Shown one piece after another: positions 892 through 57,981 of a stretch of DNA of 64,000 nucleotides; positions within the stretch are counted from its first letter, which is position 1, and every line of letters begins with the position of its first letter. The notes beneath the pieces were generated by a model. It was not told the DNA's origin. It made no database searches and was given only the letters and a program-made list of their open reading frames with translations. The DNA is taken from IMG/VR virus record IMGVR_UViG_3300035101_000063. The stretch is one strand, 5' to 3'. The stretch comes from a virus. The position numbers were made by a program, and so were the translations under genes.

Positions 892-907
892 GCGAACTCG
901 AGTTCGC
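892..907. repeat. palindrome GCGAACTCGAGTTCGC (copy 1 of 10)
   Basis: Perfect 16-bp palindrome with a central XhoI-like CTCGAG; sits 13 bp upstream (minus sense) of the -35 at 872-877. Confidence 0.9.
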
Positions 908-917
908 TAATTTATTC

Positions 918-945
918 GTTTGTTTGTTTGTTTGTTTGTTTGTTT
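918..945. repeat. (GTTT)7 microsatellite abutting the distal CRISPR repeat
   Basis: Seven tandem gttt units; the last unit is the first four bases of the CRISPR repeat at 942. Confidence 0.85.
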
Positions 946-1413
946 CAATCCACGCCCCCTTTAAGGGGACGACACAGGCTCGCCAGACCACCGTCCCAAA
1001 TTCCCCAGGTCCGTTTCAATCCACGCCCCCTTTAAGGGGGCGACACAGCCCCGTGTACACATCCGGCGACGCGGAGTTGGATATGGTTTCAATCCACGCC
1101 CCCATGAAGGGGGCGAAACAGGCTCTTGCTTTTCCTCCTTTTTTCCCACCTCGTTTGCGTTTCAATCCACGCCCCCATGAAGGGGGCGAAACAGCCGGAT
1201 AATGGAATCCTTCTGTCCATATGCCCGAATCCGTTTCAATCCACGCCACCATGAAGGGGGCGAAACAGGGCTGTTGGAGGCCCGACAAGTAAAAAACAAA
1301 CTATGTTTCAATCCACGCCCCCATGAAGGGGGCGAAACAGTTCTCTTTTTTTGCCTGGTTTATCATAATTTTCTCCTGTTTCAATCCACGCCCCCATGAA
1401 GGGGGCGAAACAG
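942..1413 (-). CRISPR. CRISPR array 1: 7 repeats x 36 bp, 6 spacers (35-38 bp), type I-C-like repeat
   Basis: Repeats at 942, 1013, 1086, 1159, 1233, 1305, 1378 read GTTTCAATCCACGCCCCCATGAAGGGGGCGAAACAG. The reverse complement ...GCCCCCTTCATGGGGGCGTGGATTGAAAC matches the canonical I-C repeat end GTGGATTGAAA(C/T), so transcription is on the minus strand. The two leftmost repeats are variants (CCCCCTTTAAGGGG-CGACACAG). Confidence 0.93.
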
Positions 1414-1622
1414 AGACCATATAAAATAATATGTAATTACAATAACTTCCATCATTATTTTCGAGCGCCTATCATTTTTATATCTTATTATATATATCAC
1501 TGTTTTAATCAATACTCATTCATAAAACAACACATTACGTAACATTATGATATCATATAATAAAAACTAATTATATATTTTTCGAGCGGTCACAACTTTT
1601 TTACCACCATATAACCGCTCGA
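1414..1622 (-). promoter_or_regulatory. AT-rich leader-like region between the two arrays
   Basis: ~200 bp, very AT-rich, next to the most conserved repeat of array 1. Contains duplicated ttttcgagcg motifs (1461-1470, 1580-1589) and an inverted repeat cgagcggt...accgctcg (1583-1621). Confidence 0.45.
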
Positions 1623-1876
1623 TTTTCAATCCACACCCCCTTAAAGGGAACGACACAGAGCTCGGCGAATGCACGACCAAGACTGCTTAATGATGTTTCA
1701 ATCCACGCCCCCTTAAAGGGTGCGACACAGACGACTAAAAATATCAAGCATTCCTTTCCCATCATTCGTTTCAATCCACACCCCCTTAAAGAGGGCGACA
1801 CAGACTTTCTTATTTTTACTTCCCCCCTCTATTTCTTCACGTTTCAATCCACGCCCCCTTAAAGGGGGCGACATAA
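1623..1876 (-). CRISPR. CRISPR array 2: 4 repeats, 3 spacers, repeat variant CCCCCTTAAAGGGGG-CGACACAG
   Basis: Repeats at 1623 (degenerate), 1695, 1768, 1841 (3' end degenerate, ...gacat). Spacers 1659-1694, 1731-1767, 1804-1840. Same orientation as array 1; lies immediately 3' of the cas7 stop. Confidence 0.9.
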
Positions 1877-1913
1877 TATATTAAATTGTCAAAGAACACT
1901 ATCTCACTATCTA

Positions 1914-2798
1914 TTACAGCCCATCAATCTTTTCAGTCATCTCCACATTACTTGGCAAATCATCTCTATTTGCCACTATATCATAATCATTAAATGAACG
2001 TATTGGTTCATTAGGACTAACAATCCTATTTATTTTTATCAAATCAAACAATTTATGAGAAGGTGCATTACCTAACTTACTATTATGTTTAAAAACATAT
2101 AATTTCCTAGCAACCATCTTTCCTCTACCTGCAGAATGGTCATGCTCAAACATATTAATCATTGCTTCCCATAACAACTCAAGATCTTCTTCTGAAAAAC
2201 CAGTTTTCTCAGCAAAATAAGCAGATATATATCCTTCACATCTATACAACCCATAAGGTACAATGAATTTTTTACCCATCGTACGTTCTTTTTCTAGGTC
2301 CTCTTCCTTAGTAACAGCCATTCTAGTAATAGTTAACTCACCAGGAAGAACAGGATCAATACTTTTTGAAAAATTCATCTGAACTGGACCACGTACTTGT
2401 CCTGCATTAACAGCATTAGTCATTACAGCACCAAAAGTCCTAATATCAAAAAAATTATTACACATCCAGTTAGTTATCATAACTGATTCTTTTTCATCTT
2501 TTGGAAGCTTATTTGTTTCTGGCTTCAAATCATACTCTTTATAAGCCAATTCATGCTGTCTATTTAAAACAGCCTTCTCTTTAACATAAATCTTAAATCC
2601 TACTTCTTCTTCTTTTGTAACTTCGATATAATTTCTTATTTTTCTCTTTATACAAACATCAGAAACTAATCCATGAGACGTTTCCGAATCAAGCCTTGGC
2701 ATACCTCCAGCATCTGGATCTCCATTTGGATTTCCATTTTCAACGTCAAACAAAAAAACAAACTCATAACGATTTTTTATAACAGCCATTTTCATCAT
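1914..2798 (-). CDS. cas7c: Cas7c (Csd2) backbone subunit of type I-C Cascade
   Basis: 294 aa; N-terminal NRYEFVFLFDVENGNPNGDPDAGGMPRLD...GLVSDVCIKRKIRNY is the Csd2/DevR-family hallmark. Confidence 0.9.
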   Translation of the reverse strand: MMKMAVIKNRYEFVFLFDVENGNPNGDPDAGGMPRLDSETSHGLVSDVCIKRKIRNYIEVTKEEEVGFKIYVKEKAVLNRQHELAYKEYDLKPETNKLPKDEKESVMITNWMCNNFFDIRTFGAVMTNAVNAGQVRGPVQMNFSKSIDPVLPGELTITRMAVTKEEDLEKERTMGKKFIVPYGLYRCEGYISAYFAEKTGFSEEDLELLWEAMINMFEHDHSAGRGKMVARKLYVFKHNSKLGNAPSHKLFDLIKINRIVSPNEPIRSFNDYDIVANRDDLPSNVEMTEKIDGL

Positions 2799-4582
2799 CC
2801 TTTCATCTCACCAACAACTTCGTTGTCAATTCTATCTTCTTCGTTTTCATTATCAACTTTTTTTACAAAAAAATCATTCCATTGATGATAATATCCTATA
2901 ACAAATAAACCTTGATCTTCCAAACTCAAATAAGTTGGAAACTTATCAATATCATTATCATAAATAATAGAACCTAATTCTTTAGAATAATAAACCCAAA
3001 GTCCATATTTTTTATTCTTCAACTTCCTCTGATGATGAGTACTCAAGTGAAGTATTTTAGGAAATGCAACAGATGGCTTAACAGATGCAGATGTAAAATA
3101 ATTATCTTTTATTGTTGTTTTTATTTTTCTTTCTTCACTCTTTTCCTGTATTTTTTCCAATACAGCAAATAATCTTCCTAAATTATACGGCAAATCTTTT
3201 CTTTCTCTGTCTAAAGACACACTAACCTCCTTATTGAAATTTCTATTTAAAATTGCTTTTATTAAAGCACAATTATAACGATTTATCCTTTCATGTTCCT
3301 GCCTTTTATTATCTTTATTCTTCTTAGGAATAACCTTTAATCTATCTATCAATAAACTCATCAATGAAACAGGATATGGTATCCCATTTAAAATAGACAT
3401 CATAAATGGACCAACTATATTTGACGTTATATTTTTTTCGTCATACTGAAAAACTATTTCTGAAAAAAGTTTTTTAATACTTGGCATAAAATATTGTTCA
3501 TTTCTCCCTACAATATCTAAAAAATCAAAATGTTGAATTAATTTATTCGAGATACCTTCTATAGTATCTATATGCCAAAATTTAACAGACAAACGAGATA
3601 AATTTGGAACCAATCCTAAAATAAAAAATCTTTCATTACCATTAATATAATCTGGCATTCTCCTTTTTTTAACTGTATCCAAAAATTCTTCAGCTTCATC
3701 AACAAAATCAAAATCTTTTGATGGATTTAATAAAGTACCAAAAATATCATCCATCTTCGATTTTTTCTCAGACCAAAATACTATGGTCATATCGCCCAAT
3801 TCAATTTTATGTTTAGACTCTGAAATATAATTAAACGCAGTACTATATGCAAAAGCTTCATACTTTCCAATAGGAGCATTCAATCCTTGATCTTTGCTAT
3901 TATTTCCATAAGAACAAAATGAATCCATATTAAACGAAACAAAAGGAGCACTTTGCCCTTTCACTCTTATATTAGGATGAAGTCTAGCAATAGCAGTATT
4001 ATCTCCACTTATAATACAACGACCAAAACAATCACAATTACTTAAATATTTATCAGACCAATATCGTTGCAATTCATTTGATTCATGTAAATATTTCTCA
4101 TTACCCAACAATTTAACAACAACATTATTACATTTATCATCTAATACAATATCAAGATCTAAAAAAACATCAGGTTCCCATTTATCTAAGAAACGTATAA
4201 AAGCTTCTAAATCATCATTATTAATCATCTTAAAATGTTCACGATGATATTCTCTGAAAGCTTCAAATCTAGCCTTGCTTTTTTCAGTTATTTTCCAATC
4301 AGTATCATCACAAGCAATACCAAACATATATTCTAAATTCTCCCAACAAAAACCAGGACTTTTATTGATTCCATTAGTACGCTTAACCAAAGGAACCCTA
4401 ATAGATATTGGCCTTGGCTTTTTTTTGCTCTTGTCTTGTATATCTTCAAATCTAATAAAATTACCATAACTATCAATAACTAATGAATACTTTATTTTCT
4501 GGTTACCAAATCCTATTACAGGAATATCAGCACCAGATTCTTTTAAATATTCATAATAATTTACCAACTCTTCAAGAATCAT
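2795..4582 (-). CDS. cas8c: Cas8c (Csd1) large subunit of type I-C Cascade
   Basis: 595 aa; N-terminus MILEELVNYYEYL...RVPLVKRTNGINKSPGFCWENLEYMFGI is Cas8c-like; 4-bp overlaps with cas5 and cas7 indicate an operon. Confidence 0.85.
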   Translation of the reverse strand: MILEELVNYYEYLKESGADIPVIGFGNQKIKYSLVIDSYGNFIRFEDIQDKSKKKPRPISIRVPLVKRTNGINKSPGFCWENLEYMFGIACDDTDWKITEKSKARFEAFREYHREHFKMINNDDLEAFIRFLDKWEPDVFLDLDIVLDDKCNNVVVKLLGNEKYLHESNELQRYWSDKYLSNCDCFGRCIISGDNTAIARLHPNIRVKGQSAPFVSFNMDSFCSYGNNSKDQGLNAPIGKYEAFAYSTAFNYISESKHKIELGDMTIVFWSEKKSKMDDIFGTLLNPSKDFDFVDEAEEFLDTVKKRRMPDYINGNERFFILGLVPNLSRLSVKFWHIDTIEGISNKLIQHFDFLDIVGRNEQYFMPSIKKLFSEIVFQYDEKNITSNIVGPFMMSILNGIPYPVSLMSLLIDRLKVIPKKNKDNKRQEHERINRYNCALIKAILNRNFNKEVSVSLDRERKDLPYNLGRLFAVLEKIQEKSEERKIKTTIKDNYFTSASVKPSVAFPKILHLSTHHQRKLKNKKYGLWVYYSKELGSIIYDNDIDKFPTYLSLEDQGLFVIGYYHQWNDFFVKKVDNENEEDRIDNEVVGEMKG

Positions 4583-5250
4583 CTTTTAACCTCATCACTA
4601 TTCGGATGTGGAACACTTATGCATCCATTTTCTATTTTTGCACGAAAAAACATAGGCAAAATATTACATTTATCTTTTTTCTTCTTTATATCAAAACACA
4701 TATCATATAACATCCAACCAAGATCGCGTGTTTCATTTATAGCAACTGGCATCTTATTAGAAATGGGCTCAAAAAAAGCCGAGAATTCTCTACAACCCAA
4801 ATATGGCTGATTAAAACATTGACCATTTTCAATCCTTCGATTAAAAATACCAAAATGCTTTCCTTTGTTTTTTCCATCGTTTTCAACAGCCTCAAAATGA
4901 GCATCAATAACATAGCTTACATCTCGTAAAACCATAGAATTACGTTGTGTTCTATCAGATTCTATAAACAAAGATAATGGCCTTGAAATATTATTCATAG
5001 TAGATGTGATATTTTTTTTATAAATTGGAGAAGACACTTCATTTCTCCGAATATTACAAAAACGAATTGGATTCAAAACATAAATCTTATCAATTATCCA
5101 TCGAATAGATTTCTTCCAATAAATAGCCTCCAAAATTCCACGTGCAGCTGATGGTGTAATCACATCATAACTAACACGCTCAGCTTTCATTTCCGGCCTT
5201 GTAAAACACGCCAATTCACCCCAAACATGAACTTTTACTCCATAATCCAT
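4579..5250 (-). CDS. cas5c: Cas5c (Cas5d) subunit and pre-crRNA endoribonuclease of type I-C
   Basis: 223 aa; VHVWGELACFTRPEMKAERVSYDVITPSAARGILEAIYWKK matches the Cas5d N-terminal signature. Confidence 0.9.
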   Translation of the reverse strand: MDYGVKVHVWGELACFTRPEMKAERVSYDVITPSAARGILEAIYWKKSIRWIIDKIYVLNPIRFCNIRRNEVSSPIYKKNITSTMNNISRPLSLFIESDRTQRNSMVLRDVSYVIDAHFEAVENDGKNKGKHFGIFNRRIENGQCFNQPYLGCREFSAFFEPISNKMPVAINETRDLGWMLYDMCFDIKKKKDKCNILPMFFRAKIENGCISVPHPNSDEVKR

Positions 5251-5317
5251 AGTTTTCCCTTATATTTTTCAATATCTTATATCACATATTCTGCCAGCAC
5301 CATACTGACAATCTATC

Positions 5318-5350
5318 AAGACATTAATCAATTAATCATGTTTTGTCAAC
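5318..5350 (-). promoter_or_regulatory. promoter of the cas5-cas8-cas7 operon (GTTGACAAAA -35, TAATGT-like -10)
   Basis: tttgtcaac at 5342-5350 (minus GTTGACAAA); tandem 8-bp direct repeat attaatca x2 at 5323-5338 between -35 and -10 (possible operator); ~60-nt leader to the cas5 ATG at 5250. Confidence 0.55.
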
Positions 5351-5356
5351 ATTTTT

Positions 5357-5668
5357 CTACATTATCATTCCACACATATAAACTCTATCAATACGATGTT
5401 CACTAGCATCAAAAAAGGGTCCTTTCTTCCCTGAATATTTTACTTCATCTTTCAACCATTTACCGTTAGTCTCCTTATCTGGATCTTCACAATATATGTC
5501 TTCAGAAACAAAATCCAAAATCTCTGATACCGCTTCAGAATCCGAATCTGTATTTATATACTTACCATTTGCTTTATCTAGGATATCAAGATCTTCATCA
5601 GATACATTCTGAATAAAATATGCTTTCATATCTTCAGGAACCATCTCAAAAACTAAAAAAACATTCAT
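5357..5668 (-). CDS. hypothetical acidic protein upstream of the cas operon
   Basis: 103-aa ORF, RBS ggagataaaag, own promoter. Confidence 0.5.
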   Translation of the reverse strand: MNVFLVFEMVPEDMKAYFIQNVSDEDLDILDKANGKYINTDSDSEAVSEILDFVSEDIYCEDPDKETNGKWLKDEVKYSGKKGPFFDASEHRIDRVYMCGMIM

Positions 5669-5754: not shown

Positions 5755-6273
5755 TCAGGCAATCGTATTATTGTTTTTTATATCTTCAAAATCATTTTCA
5801 TTCAAAACTGAAAATCTCTCAACCAAACCTGTCTCTTTATTTATATTAGCACATATACAACCAAATCCAGTTGTATCATCTTTACCAAATACACCATTCA
5901 AAATACCCAATATGCCTACTCTATATCCACCCTCTGGTCTCTTTCCAATTTGTATATTTGGTATATCTGCTAAATCCTTATTACAAATAACACGCATATT
6001 AATAAGTTGATTTATTGCATATGAATCTATAGCTAAAACCTTATTCAATATATCAACCACATCATTTGGTGTAACAATATCCTTTAACATCCATAATCCT
6101 TTTTTGGACGAACTCGAGTTCGTTTCACCTATATCATCCTGGTCACTAATTACCATCTTTTTGTAAAGCTCAAAATCTCGTCTCAAAACCTCAGATGGCT
6201 CTCTTGGATTCAATATGGCTTCTGCAAAAATAAGCGAATCTTCAGGAGACAACTCAAGTACTTCTATCTTCAT
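5755..6273 (-). CDS. hypothetical protein carrying palindrome copy 2 in-frame
   Basis: 172-aa ORF. The palindrome at 6108-6123 encodes ...ETNSSSS...; possibly two genes fused by read-through (internal Met MLKDIVTP just downstream). Confidence 0.45.
   Translation of the reverse strand: MKIEVLELSPEDSLIFAEAILNPREPSEVLRRDFELYKKMVISDQDDIGETNSSSSKKGLWMLKDIVTPNDVVDILNKVLAIDSYAINQLINMRVICNKDLADIPNIQIGKRPEGGYRVGILGILNGVFGKDDTTGFGCICANINKETGLVERFSVLNENDFEDIKNNNTIA
6108..6123. repeat. palindrome ACGAACTCGAGTTCGT (copy 2)
   Basis: Exact palindrome; intragenic. Confidence 0.9.
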
Positions 6274-6570: not shown

Positions 6571-6897
6571 TTAATTGCATCTTTTAACCATACTAATTGC
6601 ATCTTTCATCTTCTTCACTTTTTTTGTAAGCCACCCAGTACCAGCACACCATTCGCAATCAACTGGGTCATCACATCCACATGCCACCACTTCGGCTTTA
6701 CATGGTCCAACAACAAACTCAGAACCTGGTTTACAAAACATATCTATTCCAGATTCGTTATAAAGTCCCCAATTTATTTGAACCAATTGCATCGCTCTTC
6801 CGAAACCAATAGTCTTCAAAGAAGACACTAATACTTTTTCAGAAGTTGTTTTTGGACCCAAAATATCATTAGCCTTATCATAATCATCAATCAACAT
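6571..6897 (-). CDS. hypothetical protein with a DnaJ-type CxxCxGxG zinc-finger motif
   Basis: 108 aa; CEWCAGTGW plus further Cys pairs. Confidence 0.45.
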   Translation of the reverse strand: MLIDDYDKANDILGPKTTSEKVLVSSLKTIGFGRAMQLVQINWGLYNESGIDMFCKPGSEFVVGPCKAEVVACGCDDPVDCEWCAGTGWLTKKVKKMKDAISMVKRCN

Positions 6898-9832: not shown

Positions 9833-9848
9833 GCGAACTCGAGTTCGC
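9833..9848. repeat. palindrome GCGAACTCGAGTTCGC (copy 3)
   Basis: Exact palindrome 3 bp downstream of the stop of the small ORF at 9852-10022. Confidence 0.9.
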
Positions 9849-9851: not shown

Positions 9852-10022
9852 CTATATATATCCAAGATACAATAACCACGATGGATATCCATGTGGACAT
9901 ATACCATCAGGTTCCACTACACATCCATCTGTTGCTTCACAAACCGAAGAAAAACCCCATCTCTCAATTTGCTCCAAATCAGGCTTAGGCATAGTTGGTT
10001 CAGGATATCTTTTCTTTTTCAT
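9852..10022 (-). CDS. small Cys-containing protein (56 aa), below the ORF-track length cutoff
   Basis: ATG at 10020-10022 preceded by RBS ggagagata; translates MKKKRYPEPTMPKPDLEQIERWGFSSVCEATDGCVVEPDGICPHGYPSWLLYLGYI. Confidence 0.3.
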   Translation of the reverse strand: MKKKRYPEPTMPKPDLEQIERWGFSSVCEATDGCVVEPDGICPHGYPSWLLYLGYI

Positions 10023-10053: not shown

Positions 10054-10566
10054 TTATATCTTGGTTCCTTCGAGGTTGGCCCCTTCGAAGCCAGCCCATT
10101 TGAACTTGACCTCTTTAAGGTTGGCACTTTCAAGATTGGCCCCTTTAAGGTTGGCACTTTCAAGATTGGCACTTTCAAGATTGGCATCTTTGAGATTGAC
10201 CCCTTCAAGGTAAGCCCATTTGAGGTTGGCATCTTTGAGATTGGCCCCTTCAAGATTGGCATCTTTAAGGTAGGCCCATTCTAGATTGGCATCTTCGAGG
10301 TCAACCCCTTTTAGGTCAACCCCTTCGAGGCCAACCCCTTTTAGGTTGACCCCTTTAAGGTTGGCACTTTCAAGATTGGCACTTTCAAGATTGGCACTTT
10401 CAAGATTGGCACTTTCAAGATTGGCCCCTTTGAGATTGGCCCCTTTGAGGTTAGCTTCTTCGAGGTCAACCCCTTCGAGGTCAGCCCCTTTTAGGTTGGC
10501 TCCTTCGAAGTTGACCCCTTTGAGGATGGCTCCCCGCAAATTTCTTCCACTTAAATCAATTTTCAT
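10054..10566 (-). CDS. pentapeptide-repeat protein, paralog 1
   Basis: 170 aa; MKIDLSGRNLRGA... then continuous A(N/D)L(K/E)G pentapeptide repeats. Confidence 0.8.
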   Translation of the reverse strand: MKIDLSGRNLRGAILKGVNFEGANLKGADLEGVDLEEANLKGANLKGANLESANLESANLESANLESANLKGVNLKGVGLEGVDLKGVDLEDANLEWAYLKDANLEGANLKDANLKWAYLEGVNLKDANLESANLESANLKGANLESANLKEVKFKWAGFEGANLEGTKI

Positions 10567-11194
10567 TTTTTATCCCTTCGAGGTTGGCCCCTTCTAGATC
10601 GACCTCTTCTAGATCGACATCTTTAAGATTGGCTCCTTTAAGATTGGCTCCTTTGAGGTAGGCCCCTTTAATTTTGGCCCCTTCGAGGTTGGCTCCTTCT
10701 AGATTGGCTCCTTCTAGATTGACTCCTTCAAGGTTGGCACATTTAAGGATGGCCCCTTCTAGATTGGCCCTTTTTAGGTCTGCCATTTCTAAATTGGCCC
10801 TTTTGAGGTCTGCCATTTCAAGGTCTGCCCCTTCAAGGTTGGCCCCTGTAAAGTCTGACCCTTTAAAATTGGCATATCTTAGGTTGGCATCTTCGATGTT
10901 GGCCATTTTGAGGTTGACCCTTTCGAGATTGGCACCTCTTAGGTCTGCCCCTTTGAGGTCAGTACCTTCAAGGTTAGCACCTTCAAGATTGGCCCCTGTA
11001 AAGTCTGCCTTTTCAAGGTCTGCCCCTTCAAGATTGGCACATCTTAGGTATGTCCATTCGAGTTTGGCCCCTTTTAGGTTGGCTCCTTCGAGGTTAGCTT
11101 CTTCAAGGTTGGTCCTTTCTAGCTTAGCACCTCGCAAATCAATTCCTTCGAAGTTGGCTCCCCGCAAATTTCTTCCACTTAAATCAATTTTCAT
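10556..11194 (-). CDS. pentapeptide-repeat protein, paralog 2
   Basis: 212 aa; same N-terminus MKIDLSGRNLRGA; C-terminus ...EGIKNEN; 11-nt overlap with paralog 1. Confidence 0.8.
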   Translation of the reverse strand: MKIDLSGRNLRGANFEGIDLRGAKLERTNLEEANLEGANLKGAKLEWTYLRCANLEGADLEKADFTGANLEGANLEGTDLKGADLRGANLERVNLKMANIEDANLRYANFKGSDFTGANLEGADLEMADLKRANLEMADLKRANLEGAILKCANLEGVNLEGANLEGANLEGAKIKGAYLKGANLKGANLKDVDLEEVDLEGANLEGIKNEN

Positions 11195-11747
11195 TTTTTA
11201 TCCCTTCGAGGTTGGACCCTTTGAGATAGGCCCCTTCTAAATTTATCCCTCTCAAATCTGTCTTTTCCAGCTTGGCCCCTTCTAGGTAAGCCCCTTTAAA
11301 GTTGACTCCTTCCAAGTAAGCCCTTTTAAAATTGGCCCCTTTGAGGTTGGCTCCTTTGAAATTGGCCAAGTAGAGGTTGGCACATTCAAAATTGGCCCCT
11401 TCAAGGTTAGCATCTTTAAGGTCTGCCCCTTCAAAGTTGACCAATTTTAGGTTGGCTTCTTTGAGTTTGGCACCTTCTAGGTTGGCCCATTTAAGGATGG
11501 CCCCCTCAAGATTGGCCCCTTTTAGGTTGGCTTCTTTGAACTTAACCCCTTCGAGGTCAGCCCCTTCGAGGAAAGCCCCTTTTAGATTGGCCCCTTCAAG
11601 GTTGGCTTTTTTTAGATTGGCTCCTTTTAGGTAGGCATCTTTGAGGTTGGCCCCTTCAAGGTCAGCCCCTTTTAGGTAGGCACCTTCGAGGTCAGCCCCT
11701 TCCAAAATGGCTCCTCGCAAATTTCTTCCACTTAAATCAATTTTCAT
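11184..11747 (-). CDS. pentapeptide-repeat protein, paralog 3
   Basis: 187 aa; MKIDLSGRNLRGA ... EGIKNEN. Confidence 0.8.
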   Translation of the reverse strand: MKIDLSGRNLRGAILEGADLEGAYLKGADLEGANLKDAYLKGANLKKANLEGANLKGAFLEGADLEGVKFKEANLKGANLEGAILKWANLEGAKLKEANLKLVNFEGADLKDANLEGANFECANLYLANFKGANLKGANFKRAYLEGVNFKGAYLEGAKLEKTDLRGINLEGAYLKGSNLEGIKNEN

Positions 11748-12275
11748 TTATCTCTTAGCTCCTTCTAAGTTAGCTCCTTCTAAGTTGGCTCCTTTGAAAT
11801 TGGCTCCTTCTAGATTGGCCCCTTCGAGGTTAGCCCATTTAAAATTGGCTCCTTCGAGATTGGACCCTTCAATATTGGCCCATTTTAGGTCTGCCCTTTC
11901 GAGGATGGCCCCTTCGAGATTAGCCCCTTTGAGGATGGCCCCTTCGAGGATGGCCTCTTTGAGGTTAGCCCCTTTGAGATTTACCTCTTTGAGGTTAGCC
12001 CCTTCGAGGTTGGCCCTTTCGAGATTGGCCCCTTCGAGGTTAGTTCCTTCGAGGTTTGCCCTTTCAAGGTTGGCTCCTTTTAGGTTTGCCCTTTCAAGGT
12101 CTGCACCTTTGAGGTTAGCACATCTTAAACCTGTCCATTCAAGGTTGGACCCTTCGAGGTTAGTTCCTTCGAAGTTAGCTTCTTCAAGGTTGGTCCTTTC
12201 GAGGTCTGCCCCTCGCAAATCAATCCCTTTCAAAATAGCTCCTCGCAAATTTCTTTCACTTAAATCGATTTTCAT
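11748..12275 (-). CDS. pentapeptide-repeat protein, paralog 4
   Basis: 175 aa; MKIDLSERNLRGA...; its TAA stop overlaps the next ATG (taaATG). Confidence 0.8.
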   Translation of the reverse strand: MKIDLSERNLRGAILKGIDLRGADLERTNLEEANFEGTNLEGSNLEWTGLRCANLKGADLERANLKGANLERANLEGTNLEGANLERANLEGANLKEVNLKGANLKEAILEGAILKGANLEGAILERADLKWANIEGSNLEGANFKWANLEGANLEGANFKGANLEGANLEGAKR

Positions 12276-12708
12276 TTTTTATCCCTTCGAAGTTGGCCTC
12301 TTTGAGATAGGCCCCTTCCAAATTGGCCCCTTCCAAATTTACCCCTCGCAAGTTGACCTTGCTCAAATCAGTTCCTCTCATGTCAACCCTTTCCAAATTG
12401 GCACTTAGTAAGTCAGTCCCTTCCAAATTGGCCCCTCGCAAGTTAACCTTACTCAAGTTGGCCTCTCGTAAATCGGCCCCTTCCAAATCGGCCCCTCGCA
12501 AGTTTGCGTTACTTAAATTAGCCTTGCTCAAGTTGACCCCTCGCAAATTGGTCCATTCTAAGTTGGCCCCTTCCAGATTGACATTATTCAGATTAGCCTA
12601 TTCTAAGTTGGCCCATCGCAAGTTAATCCCTTCCAAATTGGCCTTGCTCAGATTAGCCTTTCGTAAATTGGCTTCTCGCAAAATTTTACCACTTAAATCG
12701 GTTTTCAT
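12256..12708 (-). pseudogene. pentapeptide-repeat paralog 5/6 interrupted by an in-frame TAG
   Basis: ATG at 12706-12708 gives MKTDLSGKILREANLRKANLSKANLEGINLRWANLE, then TAG (plus 12598-12600). The frame continues ANLNNVNLEGANLEWTNLRGVNLSKANLS... to the family C-terminus ...EGIKNENRFK at 12256. Confidence 0.6.
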
Positions 12709-16319: not shown

Positions 16320-16676
16320 CTATCCATTCAATCGCGCAGCATGGGCTTCCGCGTCTTTGGGGTTTTTGAATACCCCGTTACAATTTCGCGCCCAACTCAA
16401 ATCATCATCCAGATCGACAGCGGCTACAGCCCAATGTCGAGGCGCATCCATATAAACTAGAAATTCCGTTGGCTTGACATAGATAAAGATGAGACTGGGG
16501 TCTTCGCTGGCGATTTCCTCAGCATCTGCTACTGAGATGTCATAACGCGCGTCTTCTATGGGGTCTGCATATTTGCAGAGCACTGAATCTGAATTACTAC
16601 GCTTGAAATCAATTGCCTCATACCCTATCAGGTTTTTCATCTTTCTTCTCCTTTCGCTCAACATCTTGTTGAGCAT
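16320..16676 (-). CDS. hypothetical protein (higher-GC island)
   Basis: 118-aa ORF preceded by the duplicated promoter/hairpin cassette. Confidence 0.5.
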   Translation of the reverse strand: MLNKMLSERRRKMKNLIGYEAIDFKRSNSDSVLCKYADPIEDARYDISVADAEEIASEDPSLIFIYVKPTEFLVYMDAPRHWAVAAVDLDDDLSWARNCNGVFKNPKDAEAHAARLNG

Positions 16677-20633: not shown

Positions 20634-20737
20634 TGCTTCCTCTCTTAATATTCAATGTTTCACGTGAAACACTTATTTCTTTTTCTTTCCGCCCTTGCCT
20701 TTTTTCTTACATCCCATTTTTAATATCATCCTTAATG

Positions 20738-20751
20738 CGAACTCGAGTTCG
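20738..20751. repeat. palindrome CGAACTCGAGTTCG (copy 4)
   Basis: Immediately 3' of the stop codon (20754-20756) of ORF 20754..21083. Confidence 0.9.
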
Positions 20752-20753
20752 TT

Positions 20754-23821: not shown

Positions 23822-23837
23822 GCGAACTCGAGTTCGC
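23822..23837. repeat. palindrome GCGAACTCGAGTTCGC (copy 5)
   Basis: Fills the 30-bp gap between the stop of 23837..24253 and the start of 23456..23806. Confidence 0.9.
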
Positions 23838-39265: not shown

Positions 39266-39284
39266 ATTCTATACCCTATCACAA

Positions 39285-39298
39285 CGAACTCGAGTTCG
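39285..39298. repeat. palindrome CGAACTCGAGTTCG (copy 6)
   Basis: In the 36-bp gap between 39302..39655 and 38837..39265. Confidence 0.9.
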
Positions 39299-39301
39299 CA
39301 A

Positions 39302-41927: not shown

Positions 41928-42325
41928 CTTTCAATATAATTCTGTGTTTGAGGTAACAAATATGTATCTATCCAACTTTTAGATGGAATTTTTATTGTCC
42001 TACCTTGATAAAGTTGAACATCTGGAAGATCCAAATTGTTTCTTGCTGCAATTACCCAATAAAGTTCCTGTCTATCAATTCCCCAAAATTTAGCAGCTAT
42101 TTTATCCAAACGTTCATTTTGCCCACTAATAACATAACTAAATTCTCCATCCTCCACACCATCCCAATTAGGCATTTCAAACATAGATCTAAATCTAATC
42201 AAATTATTCTTTTCCTTATCATAAATCAACTGCTCAGGCATAAAATTCATATAAGAAAATGTACTAGCTCTCAATAAATTCTTCTTTGGATTTGGGTCTG
42301 TTCCAATACTCATTTTATATCTCAA
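41924..42325 (-). CDS. LysM-domain tail protein (P2 gpX-like)
   Basis: 133 aa; YVISGQNERLDKIAAKFWG...GRTIKIP LysM-like motif; just after the tape measure gene. Confidence 0.55.
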   Translation of the reverse strand: MRYKMSIGTDPNPKKNLLRASTFSYMNFMPEQLIYDKEKNNLIRFRSMFEMPNWDGVEDGEFSYVISGQNERLDKIAAKFWGIDRQELYWVIAARNNLDLPDVQLYQGRTIKIPSKSWIDTYLLPQTQNYIER

Positions 42326-45300: not shown

Positions 45301-45396
45301 GTTAACATCATCAAGTGCTTTTGCAGCCTTTATAATGCCATCCTTCATCCCAGCATCAACAGCTGCCATCTCCAATGATATACCAAGAAAACTCAT
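42322..45396 (-). CDS. tail tape measure protein
   Basis: 1024 aa, Ala/Gly/Met-rich and helical, lying between the tube genes and the baseplate hub. Confidence 0.7.
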   Translation of the reverse strand: MSFLGISLEMAAVDAGMKDGIIKAAKALDDVNKMLIDQDSVIKKIKKENFFEDTEKNAGKASNKVGILSKTFKELGNIGSKSANKIKSSFDKIRNSVMQFNIADMASNVRTLTGETGNLTNSLEATMVSMLQSTKPVAASLNLSGKEMRKFASQAASMAYSMNTSADAVAETMRSIHVANKGATEAMNELGLSTKDWVKVVQTTNVPMSEYTAILGDMTTSWQASPKEAANMIDSLMAIGKAAGTGTGAVKNAKVQLDELGEVFKTLPPSMARTSDEIMSLMQSSARMSGVFREMGDTQEEAITKANTVARMFAEQDVAIRKALNIGDDRALMDNPLLKYLMRLGIGFDSARKIIETGSRDVVAGMKMVNNVYARFGTDVSPQVQRALSGLSGALGEGAAGLSYLATNTKQGTAALDKMAKMAVDGSGALKKFGKDAYSSGLTLQETYDRAKESFDTTVRSIARQNVRNLVGKQIAGMREAGKEIKELGSDKTWGPWVNALSQFRQMGISGVFASMAEYTGVGAKNAAKFGSKIGLVFDTVSQFGSELAPIMHMLGMAGPLAPLIAAGGIGALLFMDDSSVRQILGPFYKIFNDLKNKAAKIWDYFIGIWDNKVVPRIKVFWKYDMKPAMIDFWNEDFIPFLKENIPKLGMAIWDGIKWAWNKLGEMTGTTGQAGVIGGAMLAGFGPGMVGAGTQAGIAFLKAVASHPTAAGATGLAGLAAYAGWKMAESIFGPKSVSNAIAEAEVIAGGSADKFGMYKLAWQRKPEEMAGQLGRLRAALKAEKESWFPDSDDVKILEKAISLLTDAQSELILDKTESNVEKYTLGGKTTAEQFINGLTSGLEEGRQSVDDGLDFIADGMIAHSPIKSGPLAGEGESNAAYRGGYFTMEQFALGITDSTDIIRRAIETTLNDSVILTIDTYAAKMRDLAKQKMFLASVAKAMVKDLGGNIETSIDSESDINVKKNFEAAMNLPGLASVVLAVSNEGAQTRKLLKRILEENIRQTSVMSGGVSIPVTGTTTPPPS

Positions 45397-45406: not shown

Positions 45407-45422
45407 ACGAACTCGAGTTCGT
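45407..45422. repeat. palindrome ACGAACTCGAGTTCGT (copy 7)
   Basis: 10 bp upstream of the tape-measure start codon. Confidence 0.9.
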
Positions 45423-45603: not shown

Positions 45604-46431
45604 CTATTTGACCGATGGGAAGAAAAAACTTGGCTGACCAACATCCAACTTACCTTCCCATTCATGTCCACACCTCTCACACATAAACTGCACCAACGTA
45701 TCTATATTATCTTCTTTTTTATCAAAAAGATCTCTCAAAGTAGCTCTATCCCTTATCGGTAAATCCATCAACAAATCAATAGCTTCTTTATACTTATTCT
45801 TTCTATCTACTTCAATATCATCAATCGAATCAACACGAGACAATAAATGTAATGTTAAAAGTTCTTTATCTCTTTTTCTTTTACGCTGCTCTGTAAGCCA
45901 TTCTTCATCTTCTATCCTTATCACATGCCATTTTACTTCTCTTCCACTAGGAAGAACATTAACCATTTCTCTTTCCATCCTATTTGGCATTGGTGAAATT
46001 TCAATTTCTGATAAATTTACCGTAACATGCTGACTCACATTACACTCTGGACATGTAACTGTACAATCATAAAAATCACCAAGTGATATTCTACGAAGAG
46101 CCAAAAGAATAGCCATTCTATCTTGAGCTATCAGATTACAAGCTATTTTTCTTAATAAAGACTTATCACTAATAGACCCTATTTGCTCTAAACAATTCCC
46201 AATTATAACATTCAATCTAGAAACTATTGAACCTTTACTAGCCAACAATTCTTCTTCTGGTCCCTTCATCTCACGTAATACAGCATGCACGTGAAGATCT
46301 CCATCCTCATGAATATATCCTGCTGGCAACTCAATAGTAATACAACCTGGCCCTATATCAAGAACATGACCTTTTGTCTTACCTAATACAATTTTATCAT
46401 CGATAACCTTTTCATCATTCATCTCATTCAT
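45604..46431 (-). CDS. hypothetical protein with CxxC pairs
   Basis: 275 aa; CPECN...CERCGHEW. Confidence 0.5.
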   Translation of the reverse strand: MNEMNDEKVIDDKIVLGKTKGHVLDIGPGCITIELPAGYIHEDGDLHVHAVLREMKGPEEELLASKGSIVSRLNVIIGNCLEQIGSISDKSLLRKIACNLIAQDRMAILLALRRISLGDFYDCTVTCPECNVSQHVTVNLSEIEISPMPNRMEREMVNVLPSGREVKWHVIRIEDEEWLTEQRKRKRDKELLTLHLLSRVDSIDDIEVDRKNKYKEAIDLLMDLPIRDRATLRDLFDKKEDNIDTLVQFMCERCGHEWEGKLDVGQPSFFFPSVK

Positions 46432-46600
46432 CTGTAACTTCTTTCTCTATTTTAGCAATCCTAAATTTTTCCCTAACTCTTCTCTCCACATAATCTAAAA
46501 TCAACTCTCTAACAACATCACTAGCACTTCTACCATCCTCCTTACATTGATCAAGAAACCTCTTATATACACCACTTTTTATTTCAACATTCAACCTTGG
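46424..46600 (-). CDS. ribbon-helix-helix (CopG/Arc-like) DNA-binding protein, 58 aa (below ORF-track cutoff)
   Basis: MPRLNVEIKSGVYKRFLDQCKEDGRSASDVVRELILDYVERR...: beta-strand RLNVEI followed by helices; stop overlaps the next ATG; divergent from the plus-strand operon. Confidence 0.55.
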   Translation of the reverse strand, partial: PRLNVEIKSGVYKRFLDQCKEDGRSASDVVRELILDYVERRVREKFRIAKIEKEVTDE

Positions 46601-46692
46601 CATATAACAACCTTCCTAAAACACTACTTGAGTAAATAATACCACTTTTATGCTATCATTATCAACACTTTTGCATTTTTTTATCAAAAAAG

Positions 46693-46981: not shown

Positions 46982-47332
46982 ATGAAAAACCTGAATTTAC
47001 TAATCATTGATGATGATGAACAAATTACTCGTATGCTTTCCAGAGTAATGAAAAATACTTGGAAAAGTATAACAGTCAAACATTCCTGTGATGATGGACT
47101 AATAGCTCTTCAAGACGGAAATTTTGACATAATCCTTAGCGATTGGGATTGCCCAAACAAATCAGACGGACTAAAAATAGTTCAACATTCAACAATACCA
47201 TTCGTAATATATACAGCAAACTATACACTCAAATATGATATGCCCAATATACATATTCTTACTAAACCATGCGATGTCTGTGAAATCTATGATGCTCTCA
47301 TTACTGAATGGATCAATAAGTGTTTGACATAA
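46982..47332 (+). CDS. stand-alone response-regulator receiver (CheY-like REC) domain protein
   Basis: 116 aa; LLIIDDDEQITRML...DGLIAL...FDIILSDWDCPNKSDGLKIV...IPFVIYTA...LTKP carries the conserved acidic pocket, phospho-acceptor Asp, Thr and Lys in canonical spacing. Confidence 0.7.
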   Translation: MKNLNLLIIDDDEQITRMLSRVMKNTWKSITVKHSCDDGLIALQDGNFDIILSDWDCPNKSDGLKIVQHSTIPFVIYTANYTLKYDMPNIHILTKPCDVCEIYDALITEWINKCLT

Positions 47333-47642: not shown

Positions 47643-47676
47643 CCTCTCTGTTTCACGTGAAACATCAATTTTTTTA

Positions 47677-48604: not shown

Positions 48605-48928
48605 CTACTCTCCAATAGAACGAAGTACAATCTTCGCACCATTTTTTGTTTTCACAACATCAACGAACTCGAGTTCGTCCATATTTGAAAGTCCTTTTGC
48701 TATCTGATTACTAATAGATAAAGCATGTCTACCTTCGATAAGCATTCTTAATGTTTCTACACCATTTTTATATACAACTTCAAAAATATATTTATCAACA
48801 TCACGTCCTTTAATGGAACGTTCTCCCAAGGATTTTAATGCCCTAAAAAGACGTTTACCTTTGTAAGATAATACATGTTCCTCTTTAACCGGCTTATCAA
48901 TAATAAAATCAGATAATCTATTCCTCAT
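48605..48928 (-). CDS. hypothetical protein carrying palindrome copy 8 in-frame
   Basis: 107 aa; palindrome 48663-48678 encodes ...DELEFVD... Confidence 0.45.
   Translation of the reverse strand: MRNRLSDFIIDKPVKEEHVLSYKGKRLFRALKSLGERSIKGRDVDKYIFEVVYKNGVETLRMLIEGRHALSISNQIAKGLSNMDELEFVDVVKTKNGAKIVLRSIGE
48663..48678. repeat. palindrome ACGAACTCGAGTTCGT (copy 8)
   Basis: Intragenic, near the 3' end of 48605..48928. Confidence 0.9.
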
Positions 48929-54115: not shown

Positions 54116-54592
54116 CTAACGGCGTTTCTTCTTTTTTTCTTCTTTTTTTATTTCAATATTCGGCAACGCTTCACCCTGGTCAACATCTAAAAAATCACAT
54201 ATATCAACTTTCTTCTCTTCACTCATTTCATCCAATGAAATATTCTCCATTTCACCTTCAGTTAATTCAACTTTAACTTTCGATACTGGAGGAACATCCA
54301 TAGCTATTGTAACACCTTTTTCAGCAATAAGCCTTGCCATTTTTGATTTCTTAATAACATCTTTAAATGTTTTATCAGAAATATTCTTTTTATCTACATT
54401 TAAATCTTTTGGTCTACTCGTCCTACGAAAAAAACCTCTTCTACAAAGCGATTTAAATTCAATCGTAGATTCATCTATAATTTCAACCTTTGTATTAGGT
54501 CTAACAGAAACAGATCGTCCTTTCTCAACCATAACGGGCCTAACAACTCTTCCTGAATAATAATACCAAGACATATCAATTCTCCATTTCAA
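54116..54592 (-). CDS. hypothetical protein
   Basis: 158-aa ORF, Lys-rich C-terminus. Confidence 0.45.
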   Translation of the reverse strand: MKWRIDMSWYYYSGRVVRPVMVEKGRSVSVRPNTKVEIIDESTIEFKSLCRRGFFRRTSRPKDLNVDKKNISDKTFKDVIKKSKMARLIAEKGVTIAMDVPPVSKVKVELTEGEMENISLDEMSEEKKVDICDFLDVDQGEALPNIEIKKEEKKKKRR

Positions 54593-55274
54593 CGCCCATT
54601 TGAACGCTAGAATAAGGATCTGTCATAGCTGGAGAACAAATCCCATCAAATGTGTCAATTTCACCACGCACAGTAAAAGACAACGTCCAAGCAGCAATTC
54701 TGTCAGCAATATCAGCCAATTCTGATGCGTTAGAATATGACATATCTCCTGCATCATATTCTCTCACATCTCCCAAACTGTCAACAACTTTAAAATTAAA
54801 GTATGGCGGTCTCATCTTTTTCATTACATGAGATACCATTCTATTTAATTCTTGTTTCCTTCGTGCATAAATCATAAGGTCAAAACCTATATCATATGGG
54901 TCTGGCCTAATCTGCTCTTCATATTTATTATAACCTATTATGATACCATTATCTCCATATATTGGAATCGCATCCTTAGAAGGAGCACGCCCAACAGTAC
55001 CAGCATATGGTTGCCTATTAAAAGCATCATTCATACTGTTAGATTTAAACACAAAACATGGAAGAATATAATCTTGATAGGCATCTTCAGGAGAATCAAA
55101 AAAAGCAGGAACCTTGTTTTGAAACCTATCTATATCTGTATTTACACCATCAACATCAACTACATATTGCGCTCTAAAATCACCGTCAATAGAATAATAT
55201 ACAATTTCAGCACCAATGGTAAGCATACACCCCAAATCAAAATCCCTAACATCCAAAGTGCCTATTACTGTCAT
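54576..55274 (-). CDS. hypothetical (tail/neck) protein
   Basis: 232-aa ORF. Confidence 0.5.
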   Translation of the reverse strand: MTVIGTLDVRDFDLGCMLTIGAEIVYYSIDGDFRAQYVVDVDGVNTDIDRFQNKVPAFFDSPEDAYQDYILPCFVFKSNSMNDAFNRQPYAGTVGRAPSKDAIPIYGDNGIIIGYNKYEEQIRPDPYDIGFDLMIYARRKQELNRMVSHVMKKMRPPYFNFKVVDSLGDVREYDAGDMSYSNASELADIADRIAAWTLSFTVRGEIDTFDGICSPAMTDPYSSVQMGVEMEN

Positions 55275-55285: not shown

Positions 55286-55301
55286 GCGAACTCGAGTTCG
55301 C
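55286..55301. repeat. palindrome GCGAACTCGAGTTCGC (copy 9)
   Basis: In the 31-bp gap between 55309..55605 and 54576..55274. Confidence 0.9.
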
Positions 55302-55622: not shown

Positions 55623-56474
55623 TTATTTCAAAAAAGGAGCTAGTTCTTTTGCAAAACCCTCTCCTGATTTAACTACAGACGAATTAATTTTATCAGCTTT
55701 TAATGATAAATTAAATATATTTTTATCACCAGTCTGTATATATTCTACAACCTTTTCCATGCACTTCATAGCATATTTTTTTGTTTCCTTAAAAGCTGGC
55801 CTCCAATGCGCTCTTCCTTTTTCACCATCAAACCCAAATTCCTTTCTAAGTACATTATATCCCAAATCTTCATGAACTTTAAGCCCTATTCCATTTGTTG
55901 TTTCACCAATATCAACATTTGGAATTCCTGACCGTAAAAAATCCAATTCAATCTTACCTCTATTCTTAAATATTCTCTCTTGTAATGCTAAAATTTCATC
56001 TTTTCTTGCCAATCTCGAAACAATTCTAGCATGTGTCGAATTAACTTCAATAGGAACCATATTTGATGGCCAAGGACCATATCTATTTAATACAGATATC
56101 CATTCAGGTGAACCATTATGTGAATTAAAATATAATACTGTTTTTGTAGCATATTCTTCTGTTACTTCTGCATTTTCACCATCTAAATAAATAGCAATTA
56201 CATCATTTTCTTCTTCACTATCTACTATCCCTATTCTCAAATCTTCTGCATATAATTTATCTTTTCCGTCAATACTAATTGATACATTCGCCTTTTTAAC
56301 TTCCTCTACTAAAAAATTTGCTACATCTAGTAAAAAAAAGAAACGAGATTCCTTTAATCTTTTAGGCCATTCATTCTCAATTTCTTTCATTAATTTTATT
56401 GTCTTACTACTTAATGAAAACTGACACAACGTAGATGGCCCATTAGTACATTTATATTTTCTTATTCGTCTCAA
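55623..56474 (-). CDS. hypothetical protein
   Basis: 283-aa ORF. Confidence 0.5.
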   Translation of the reverse strand: MRRIRKYKCTNGPSTLCQFSLSSKTIKLMKEIENEWPKRLKESRFFFLLDVANFLVEEVKKANVSISIDGKDKLYAEDLRIGIVDSEEENDVIAIYLDGENAEVTEEYATKTVLYFNSHNGSPEWISVLNRYGPWPSNMVPIEVNSTHARIVSRLARKDEILALQERIFKNRGKIELDFLRSGIPNVDIGETTNGIGLKVHEDLGYNVLRKEFGFDGEKGRAHWRPAFKETKKYAMKCMEKVVEYIQTGDKNIFNLSLKADKINSSVVKSGEGFAKELAPFLK

Positions 56475-56476
56475 AA

Positions 56477-56803
56477 CTAACCAAACAAATCCGTTACTTG
56501 GAATGTTGCTGTATTACCCCTACCAGTCCAACCAGGCATCTCAACATATGCTTGAATTCTATATGGACCTGCCTGGTCAAAATCACCAACCTGAACAACA
56601 TATTTAATACTTGTTGTTCCATAAATAGAACCAACCCATATTTCAACTGTCCTATCTGGCTTTTCAACAATCAAATTTGTAACTGTAGCTCCAGCTTCAA
56701 CTAAATCAACACAAGTATCTACAATTATCTCAGTACCTATATCTCCTATATAATATTTACCATCAAGATCACAATTAGAACAAACTGTAGCCATTATGTG
56801 CAC
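56477..56803 (-). CDS. hypothetical protein
   Basis: 108-aa ORF. Confidence 0.45.
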   Translation of the reverse strand: MHIMATVCSNCDLDGKYYIGDIGTEIIVDTCVDLVEAGATVTNLIVEKPDRTVEIWVGSIYGTTSIKYVVQVGDFDQAGPYRIQAYVEMPGWTGRGNTATFQVTDLFG

Positions 56804-57112
56804 TCCTCTAAATGAAATGCTGATGTCAAAATCAATCCTGGAGATATCATAGAAACCTCCTCTATCACCAATCCTATATTTGATACAATATTGACAGATA
56901 TGTTAAGATTAGATGTTAAATCTACTTCTTTAGTAATTTTTGATACTAAACACAATCTTTCTTCTGACATTGTGATACTAATCCCAATCTAGTAGTAACT
57001 TTTGATACTAATCTTAAAATTTCTCTATAAATTTTTACTATTGCACCAGTAAACCCATAACCTCGAGTAATCAATAATTGCGTTGGACCTAATCCTCTTG
57101 TAACAATCCTAT

Positions 57113-57379
57113 TCATATATTAGATCTTTTCTCTAAATATCCATAAACAATATCATGCATTATTTCTGTTAATTCATCAGCAACTTTTCTAAATTCCTTC
57201 CTTTTTTTTTCTAATTCTTTATTATTAATTCCAGCTCTCAAAATAGACTTTGAAAAATGAAAAATAACAGTATCAAGTTCAGAAGTATCACTTAATTGTT
57301 TAAAAATTTTATTCCATGATATTTTTAATTTTGAATCAATATTTGTTTTTTCTATCAATTCTCTCATATCTTTTGGCAT
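57113..57379 (-). CDS. hypothetical protein
   Basis: 88-aa ORF. Confidence 0.45.
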   Translation of the reverse strand: MPKDMRELIEKTNIDSKLKISWNKIFKQLSDTSELDTVIFHFSKSILRAGINNKELEKKRKEFRKVADELTEIMHDIVYGYLEKRSNI

Positions 57380-57396
57380 ATCAATTCTCCTTTAAC

Positions 57397-57981
57397 TCAC
57401 GAACTCGAGTTCGTTTCTGTTTCTATTGGCGAAATTGGCGGATTAGGAACAATAATTTTATCATCATAAAACATTTTAGTAGTAATAATAGTAGCTAATA
57501 CAATACCTACTACAAAAACAAGAATCATCCAAGGTAACATTTTTATCAACAAAAGCTTAACAGGTATTTGATTAAGCATCGCATCATCAACAGCTTTCTT
57601 CATCCTCAATGCATGAATATCTAAAACTCCACTATCTTCATTTGTTTTAGACAAAATCATATCTTTAAAAGCTATAAGACGATTCAACTGTTTCTTTATT
57701 CCACTAATATCATCTGATGCATTACACAAATCCTGTTTTCTCTCAACACTTCTTATTCTAACATCATGATCTTTTATCGTTTTCTTATTATCATCAACCT
57801 TCTCTCCTTGTGCTTCTAGAAAAGTCTGTGTCTCTATAGCAATTCTCTCTAATGACTGAAGAGTAATAGTTTGACGTTTAGTAACTTCTGATAAATCCTC
57901 ATATAGAGTTCCTAAATATCGGATATCATATTCATCACTCTTTTTCGACATCTTTTTGTTCTCTCCAAGATGACGTTTCAC
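57397..57981 (-). CDS. coiled-coil membrane protein; C-terminus encoded by palindrome copy 10
   Basis: 194 aa; one TM segment; ends ...ETETNSSS, translated from the palindrome at 57399-57414. Confidence 0.5.
   Translation of the reverse strand: MKRHLGENKKMSKKSDEYDIRYLGTLYEDLSEVTKRQTITLQSLERIAIETQTFLEAQGEKVDDNKKTIKDHDVRIRSVERKQDLCNASDDISGIKKQLNRLIAFKDMILSKTNEDSGVLDIHALRMKKAVDDAMLNQIPVKLLLIKMLPWMILVFVVGIVLATIITTKMFYDDKIIVPNPPISPIETETNSSS
57399..57414. repeat. palindrome ACGAACTCGAGTTCGT (copy 10)
   Basis: Overlaps the last codons of 57397..57981; 20 bp upstream of the start of 57113..57379. Confidence 0.9.

Follow-up and report, generated by a model that had tools for sequence, protein, structure and literature searches.

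The window examined here is a 64,000-nucleotide stretch of DNA from an uncultured myovirus (IMG/VR record IMGVR_UViG_3300035101_000063). Among the proteins it encodes are a sheath, gp19-like tube proteins, gp6-, gp25- and gp5-like baseplate proteins, a tape measure and an SNF2 helicase, and all of its genes except two are carried on the minus strand. Related contigs reach 150-195 kb, and the phage itself is put at roughly 160 kb with a T4-like baseplate. Distributed through the window are ten exact copies of a 14-bp palindrome, CGAACTCGAGTTCG, with start positions at 893, 6109, 9834, 20738, 23823, 39285, 45408, 48664, 55287 and 57400; none was found in 100 dinucleotide-preserving shuffles. The ten perfect copies listed in a first-pass annotation of this DNA are therefore real, and its coordinates point to the right sites, although they mix 14-mer and 16-mer starts and some are off by one. 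Eight copies extend to 16-bp palindromes, with outer pairs G..C in four and A..T in four; at 20738 and 39285 the flanks are non-complementary and the palindrome is limited to 14 bp. No further copies with one to three mismatches to CGAACTCGAGTTCG are found in the window, and a search with a free 4-nt centre and at most two mismatches gave four additional hits against approximately six expected, which is chance level. The palindrome family is thus all-or-none within the window. An explanation based on the XhoI site CTCGAG was rejected, as this hexamer is neither depleted nor enriched outside the motif (5 occurrences against 5.1 expected), and a literature search with the exact 14-mers returned only short hairpin RNA (shRNA) loop sequences.

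Seven of the ten copies (893, 9834, 20738, 23823, 39285, 45408 and 55287) are intergenic, where only 4.3% of the window is intergenic (P = 3e-8 for at least seven of ten), which bears out the earlier assignment of the motif to gene junctions. The order of elements is constant: a stop codon, 0-10 nt, the palindrome, 3-15 nt, a Shine-Dalgarno (SD) sequence, and the start codon. The gaps which carry a palindrome measure 25-36 bp and contain the motif and the SD only; most late-region junction gaps of at least 25 bp are occupied in this manner, and the site density is about one per 4-6 kb. Among the structural genes, the copy at 55286..55301 is found upstream of the gp15-like tail gene (54576-55274), that at 45407..45422 between a 54-aa gene and the tape-measure gene (42322-45396), and that at 39284..39299 (flanks G..T) ahead of the gene for the gp25-like baseplate wedge (38837-39265). 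The copy at 23822..23837 adjoins the stop codon of gene 23837-24253, with the SD and ATG of gene 23456-23806 located 16 nt downstream, while the 14-bp copy at 20737..20752, flanked by A..C on the coding strand, comes after the stop of gene 20754-21083. The sequence GCGAACTCGAGTTCGC occurs twice, at 9833..9848, 3′ of the stop of gene 9852-10022 and ahead of an SD and ATG, and at 892..907, 5 nt inside the downstream end of a strain-specific CRISPR-Cas cassette. Three copies overlap coding sequence: 57399..57414 makes up the last codons of gene 57397-57981; 6108..6123 (ACGAACTCGAGTTCGT) is in frame within the open reading frame (ORF) 5755-6273 (..ETNSSSS..), with an SD and in-frame ATG some 17 nt downstream; and 48663..48678 lies within gene 48605-48928, where it is read as D-E-L-E-F-V and the next start codon follows 69 nt downstream. 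Scans for sigma-70-type promoters and terminators showed no enrichment at the sites. An activator-like position had been proposed for copy 893, 13 bp from a -35 box; the case is weak, since 15 nt separate the motif from the TTGACA that follows it, this hexamer is spaced 14 nt from TATATT, and no promoter was called there by the scan.

Megablast and tblastn searches of INPHARED revealed no relatives. Relatives were instead sampled from IMG/VR, metagenome assemblies and metagenome-assembled genomes (MAGs), by way of loci that surround the sheath, baseplate and other genes and are referred to by L numbers. The site statistics are based on 83 non-redundant sites from lineages with 34-68% G+C, together with a set of 31 low-GC sites. 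The consensus of the 83 is R-CGAAC-N-Y-R-N'-GTTCG-Y, in which the arms CGAAC and GTTCG are constant and the centres seen are TCGA, TCAA, TTGA, TTAA, TCCA, ACGT, CCGG, CTGG and CCAG. All 31 low-GC sites possess the TCGA centre, and no position outside the 16 bp is conserved among them. The first-pass annotation had proposed a count of the motif in related phages, and there its junctions prove to be orthologous ones. Ahead of the gp15-like gene, 15 of 17 lineages carry it; these lineages span 34-68% G+C and their gp15 proteins fall to 48% identity with that of the window, while the remaining spacer sequence is unconserved. Orthologs of the site at 45407..45422 occur in L025/L036, L038, L010, L123, L124 and L129, with a different palindrome at this place in L131; the position at 39284..39299 is kept in L036 and L038; and the copy within gene 48605-48928 is retained in frame in L010, L025 and L033. 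From its distribution the element is evidently old. Deeper relatives carry other palindromes at the same junctions, namely GCGCAYGCGCRTGCGC in a clade with 67% GC and TGCAAT-N4-ATTGCA in L131. A scan of IMG/VR with RCGAACTCGAGTTCGY revealed multi-copy use in low-GC contigs only, some of which are other parts of the window phage or its close relatives. Single 16-mer hits in high-GC IMG/VR contigs are intragenic, and were set aside as they look like chance.

The variation among the 83 sites follows the dyad. Positions 6 and 9 of the 14-mer, which form the outer part of the spacer, are complementary in 81 of 83 cases and switch jointly (T/A in 76, C/G in 3 and A/T in 2). In 78 of 83 sites a pyrimidine-purine step occupies the centre, irrespective of which bases make it up, and we interpret this as a probable signature of deformability. 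The flanks are R and Y in every one of the 83 sites, with G..T and A..C occurring 16 times each, and on the coding strand the centres TCAA and TTGA stand at 18:13, so that there is no orientation bias. Half-sites vary independently, as typified by L027, where CGAAC and CGCAC arms are seen in all four combinations. We surmise that the palindrome is bound by a protein as a site of two-fold symmetry in double-stranded DNA, the candidate binder being a ribbon-helix-helix (RHH) protein of the phage, and we would give this reading a probability of roughly 0.5. The first-pass annotation had offered three roles without choosing among them: an operator for a dimeric regulator, with the RHH protein named; an RNA processing or stability hairpin; and a small mobile palindrome. 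The comparative data favor the operator, on the strength of the dyad-symmetric variation, the spacing of the two boxes and a ribbon that co-varies with the motif, and disfavor the other two.

The RHH protein (46424..46603, minus strand) consists of 59 amino acid residues with the ribbon PRLNVEIK, and its gene is the first of the baseplate/tape-measure operon. A profile built from 12 homologues matches ParG (1p94) at E = 1.6e-7 and also AvtR and Arc; the family matches are ParG/RHH_1 in Pfam and an Arc-like repressor in PHROG. The gene is conserved, with a T4_baseplate gene as its neighbor, in all lineages for which the region is available. Pfam scans of essentially all window proteins revealed no DNA-binding candidate besides the RHH protein and a receiver-only domain. 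The latter is a stand-alone response-regulator receiver of 116 residues with no output domain (46982-47332, plus strand); it is divergent from the RHH operon, is one of the two plus-strand genes, and is kept in close relatives (51% identity, L010/L011).

Dimers of the ParG type read 4-bp boxes with 4-bp spacers in direct or inverted orientation; contacts to the bases, and with them the specificity, come from ribbon positions 2, 4 and 6 (PMC3413123). The palindrome, read as GAAC-N4-GTTC, has this layout: the boxes are separated by a 4-bp spacer and lie 8 bp apart centre to centre, within the approximately 8-11 bp expected of RHH operators, and an RHH protein is encoded by the same element. The ribbon also changes with the site. 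In seven lineages a ribbon of the form R-x-N-x-E/D-x-K/R accompanies the site CGAAC..T-Y-R-A..GTTCG. The ribbon RLNVECQ (K8 to Q) is found with C-Y-R-G spacers in L123/L124 and L129, RLNMEIQ (K8 to Q) with an ACGT spacer in L127, and RVNFDII with a TCCA spacer in L125. In L131 the ribbon is RLNVQLK (E6 to Q) and the arms are the new GCAAT of TGCAAT-N4-ATTGCA. Hydrophobic ribbon positions vary freely across lineages, and tandem-RHH proteins with other ribbons are found in lineages that lack the motif. All told, 11 lineages are consistent with the pattern, and there is no counter-example; because these represent only about three independent changes, the co-variation is suggestive of the RHH protein as the binder rather than proof of it. 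What the comparison itself records is that operon junctions carry a conserved, symmetric and self-contained site of 16 bp, and that the ribbon encoded by the RHH gene changes along with it. The protein encoded at 46424-46603 is our leading candidate for the binder, and would act on transcription at operon junctions.

Several observations weigh against this reading. The co-variation, with its approximately three lineage events, could reflect shared phylogeny. No copy of the palindrome is present in the 739 bp upstream of the RHH gene of the window, and hence there is no sign of autoregulation there; in L131 a palindrome is located 43 nt upstream of the RHH gene. The RHH protein of the GCGCAYGCGCRTGCGC clade (67% GC) was not found in the loci searched, and an unrelated 38-kb phage carries nine identical copies with no RHH homologue in its 38 kb. 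Lastly, the LexA box of Firmicutes and Actinobacteria has the same sequence as the core of the palindrome.

If the RHH protein is the binder, the geometry and the co-variation together suggest that two dimers would bind cooperatively, one to each inverted GAAC box (extended RCGAAC), across the 4-bp spacer. Since gaps of 25-36 bp leave no room for a promoter, the bound protein would most probably act on RNA polymerase at the junctions, either as a roadblock or attenuator or through control of internal start points. More tentatively, a roadblock would split the structural operons into a gp15-sheath-tube block, a block beyond 48664, the tape measure, and a gp25-baseplate block.

The LexA box is one of two points absent from the first-pass annotation, the other being the occurrence of the motif in an unrelated phage. 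This identical core, and the sites in a phage in whose 38 kb no RHH homologue was found, make host LexA the main rival. Under such a scheme the sites would be SOS boxes for host LexA or a LexA-like protein, and would either make structural-gene expression depend on the SOS state, in the manner of GIL01, or titrate LexA from host genes. The arms and spacing of all ten window copies and of the 83 non-redundant sites are exactly CGAAC-N4-GTTCG, the LexA box known from B. subtilis and S. aureus (PMC9578287); the same box is found in Firmicutes, Actinobacteria and Gallionellales, with variants in Chloroflexi (PMC4951493). A specificity shared across phyla would explain arms that are invariant in phages of 34-64% G+C as well as identical sites in an unrelated, co-occurring phage. 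There are also phage precedents, in that SPbeta carries 7-10 LexA boxes (PMC8270828) and in GIL01 host LexA governs both early and late promoters (PMC6182141), and one relative was binned with a Dehalococcoidales MAG.

However, genuine LexA boxes are degenerate and overlap promoters; those of SPbeta show 3-5 mismatches to the consensus (PMC8270828). The window sites are invariant, with no copies at one to three mismatches, no -35/-10 pair lies at a fixed distance in the 31 low-GC sites, and promoter-like hits are unenriched. The spacer is TCGA or T-Y-R-A as opposed to the A/T-rich ATAT of the B. subtilis consensus CGAACATATGTTCG, and neither this centre in the 31 low-GC sites nor the strict R/Y flanks are known LexA preferences. 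In deeper relatives, moreover, the replacement palindromes at the same junctions track the ribbon of the phage RHH protein. Searches by tblastn with LexA, lambda CI, Spo0J and P1 ParB gave nothing in the window or in approximately 140 loci. The best named relatives of the Cas7 protein come from Desulfobacterota and Spirochaetes, and naming a host was rejected because Cas7 homologues are spread over phyla and the MAG bins ("archaeon", "Dehalococcoidales") are weak evidence. On balance we regard control by LexA as unlikely, yet as the explanation that the RHH operator has most to reckon with.

The unrelated phage, IMGVR_UViG_3300035136_000034 (L091), carries its nine copies in 38 kb at the same kind of junction. 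It possesses its own terminase, portal, capsid, tape measure and Dit/Pam3-gp18-type tail genes, and has two small proteins in common with the window phage (63-76% identity) and nothing more. These are a 108-aa protein with a DnaJ-type CxxCxGxG zinc finger and a 118-aa acidic protein, encoded at 6571-6897 and 16320-16676 in the window and at 5337-5651 and 352-606 in L091; neither has a family match. A search for an RHH protein in L091 by BLAST, regular expression, profile search and reading of ORFs yielded one spurious 12-bit hit. A CRISPR spacer of the window (1266-1304) partly matches L091 at 921-956 (23 + 17 nt), in a terminator-like hairpin region, which suggests that the two phages compete in one host. 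It is thus conceivable, though we hold it doubtful, that two unrelated phages, the present myovirus of approximately 160 kb and a phage of approximately 40 kb with a different tail module, sharing a habitat and probably a host, use the same 16-bp operator, whether through a host protein, for which LexA is the obvious candidate, or by the small phage reading the RHH protein of the large one. A host factor would explain the sharing more simply. In that case the punctuation of late genes would be SOS-gated, or replicating phage DNA would serve as a LexA sponge; were the RHH protein read by the smaller phage, this would amount to regulatory cross-talk between co-infecting phages.

Intercistronic hairpins are frequent in large phages, among them the CUUCGG hairpins of T4 and the RNase III sites of T7, and it is with this precedent that an RNA role may be weighed. 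The palindrome would then form a stem of 5-6 bp with a 4-nt loop in the mRNA, serving in processing, 3′ stability or, through a sequence-specific RNA-binding protein, as a modulator of translation. The strict order of stop codon, hairpin, 3-15 nt, SD and ATG is in keeping with this, as are a predicted local structure at most copies (-4.4 to -8.2 kcal/mol) and longer stems at 55287 (z = -2.5) and 48664 (z = -3.5). Against this, the hairpins are weak, six of the ten copies have fold energies that differ from those of shuffled sequence by no more than about one standard deviation (|z| up to 1.1), and among variants there are zero compensatory stem changes. Variants with one mismatch mostly break the stem (approximately 7, against 3-4 that leave a wobble), and two of these occur at the conserved gp15 junction, in L015 (CGCAC..GTTCG) and L024 (CGACC..GTTCG). 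The equal numbers of G..T and A..C flanks do not favor G.U wobble on the coding strand. The ends of the would-be loop co-vary like paired bases, and a hairpin cannot account for their joint switching because such pairing would close an impossible 2-nt loop. We consider an RNA hairpin distinctly improbable. The intrinsic terminator was rejected outright: downstream on the coding strand lie an SD and a start codon and no U-tract, as the first-pass annotation had also noted, and the terminator scan flagged these copies only on the non-coding plus strand.

That the palindrome is a hotspot of recombination or insertion, or a small mobile repeat bordering exchangeable gene cassettes, is very improbable. 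In its favor, one strain has a Tad6-like gene (118 aa, L004 6342-6698; Pfam Tad6, anti-defence by family name) inserted 1 nt beyond its counterpart of copy 57400, a 4.5-kb CRISPR-Cas cassette that is absent from 3300034989_000084 ends 5 nt after copy 893, and the motif is common to two unrelated phages. Against it, the copies are kept at orthologous junctions despite approximately 50% protein identity and very different G+C, which points to purifying selection and not to mobility, their flanking sequences have nothing in common, and the two genes common to both phages are not flanked by copies. The two cassette adjacencies are themselves unsurprising, since insertions survive only at junctions and palindromes fill most of the larger late-region gaps. 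Repetitive extragenic palindromes and miniature inverted-repeat transposable elements (REP/MITE) are species-specific and variable in position, whereas here the same junctions are occupied in lineages with 48-64% gp15 identity.

The RHH operator may be compared with several known systems. Like the operators of TP228 (parH/OF), pMV158 (copG) and P22 (arc), it would be served by a small RHH protein encoded by the element itself, with 4-5-bp boxes that may be inverted, a 4-bp spacer which is read indirectly, and specificity set by the ribbon (PMC3413123). Those operators lie together at a single promoter or centromere and as a rule autoregulate, whereas the sites described here are single two-box sites scattered at junctions; the phage protein also lacks the N-terminal ParF-stimulating tail of ParG. 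The Gram-positive LexA SOS box (Cheo box) has identical arms and spacing, and some phages carry several such boxes under host LexA; in contrast to it, the present sites are invariant, lie off promoters, have a T-Y-R-A spacer and strict R/Y flanks, and are replaced in deeper relatives. The Cluster O mycobacteriophages carry more than 30 copies per genome of a 17-bp repeat, TGTTCGG-N3-CCGAACA, which are predicted sites for a dimeric protein (PMC4351075). These resemble our element in having invariant inverted arms, a variable centre, no orientation bias, and many copies in short co-directional intergenic gaps, mostly off promoters and with some inside genes; they differ in sequence and spacing and belong to unrelated phages and hosts, and for the present site there is a candidate binder. 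The stoperators of Cluster A mycobacteriophages (L5 gp71) are described as dozens of repressor sites in short intra-operon gaps, which act on elongating RNA polymerase and not on initiation (PMC9283540, PMC4351075). The many sites in short gaps within operons are a feature in common; stoperators, however, are asymmetric, transcription-oriented 13-mers bound by the monomeric helix-turn-helix immunity repressor of a temperate phage, whereas the present site is palindromic, with TCAA and TTGA centres in both orientations, and has an RHH candidate. By analogy the element is most likely a dispersed phage operator, for which the Cluster O palindromes and the stoperators are the closest analogues and the ParG-type RHH operator the closest mechanistic model.

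Dispersed invariant palindromes in phage operons were known previously, the Cluster O mycobacteriophages being an example, although neither binder nor function came with them. The present comparison adds, for a wide uncultured clade, a symmetric double-stranded DNA site, a candidate cognate protein and what may be a readable code between ribbon and site, and the same junctions retain a palindrome even after its sequence has been replaced. If confirmed, this would be an RHH regulator working at many single intra-operon sites and not at one promoter, and the engineering of RHH proteins could draw on the natural series of ribbon and box pairs. That the core matches the LexA box, and that an unrelated phage has the motif too, further raises the possibility of SOS coupling or of cross-talk between phages.

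The window contains a number of other features. The type I-C CRISPR-Cas cassette occupies 845-5356 on the minus strand and encodes Cas5d (4579-5250), Cas8c/Csd1 (2795-4582) and Cas7/Csd2 (1914-2798); no cas3, cas1 or cas2 was seen in the window. Two arrays, of 7 repeats (942-1410) and 4 repeats (1623-1873), are built from the repeat GTTTCAATCCACGCCCCC..GGGGGCGA.A, and a (CAAA)n run of approximately 8 units lies at 908-941, between the last CRISPR repeat and copy 893. The contig which lacks the whole cassette, IMGVR_UViG_3300034989_000084, is otherwise 99% identical. The sequence TGTTTCACGTGAAACA, which we take to be the canonical 16-bp parS of chromosomal ParB/Spo0J, occurs as two perfect copies (20656-20671 and 47649-47664), both in gaps between a stop codon and an SD; one is located 66 bp downstream of palindrome copy 20738 in the same gap. 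It is present in the window species only, being absent in relatives with 81% sheath-protein identity, and no ParB gene was found in the window or the approximately 140 loci by tblastn with Spo0J and P1 ParB. Five tandem paralogous pentapeptide-repeat proteins are encoded at 10054-12546 (Pfam Pentapeptide, E = 1e-51).

Strong early promoters of sigma-70 type, with an extended -35 of GTTGACAAAC and a TAnAAT -10, are found on the minus strand and are confined to 0-17 kb. Their -35 hexamers start at 548, 8528, 9329, 9705, 14998 and 16713, and also at 5340 and 5740; such a family suggests that the host is a bacterium with canonical sigma-70/sigma-A recognition. A second small inverted repeat, (A)GCAAYTAAATATAYAGTTGY, is present in two neighboring junction gaps, 19686-19725 and 20059-20105, and could be another operator or a middle/late promoter element. 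Finally, an extended palindrome, CAAATG-CGAACTCGAGTTCG-CATTTG, is found in the otherwise unrelated contigs L060, L074, L083 and L101 (48-69% G+C), the form in L060 being AAATG..CATTT, and may represent a different conserved site on the same core.

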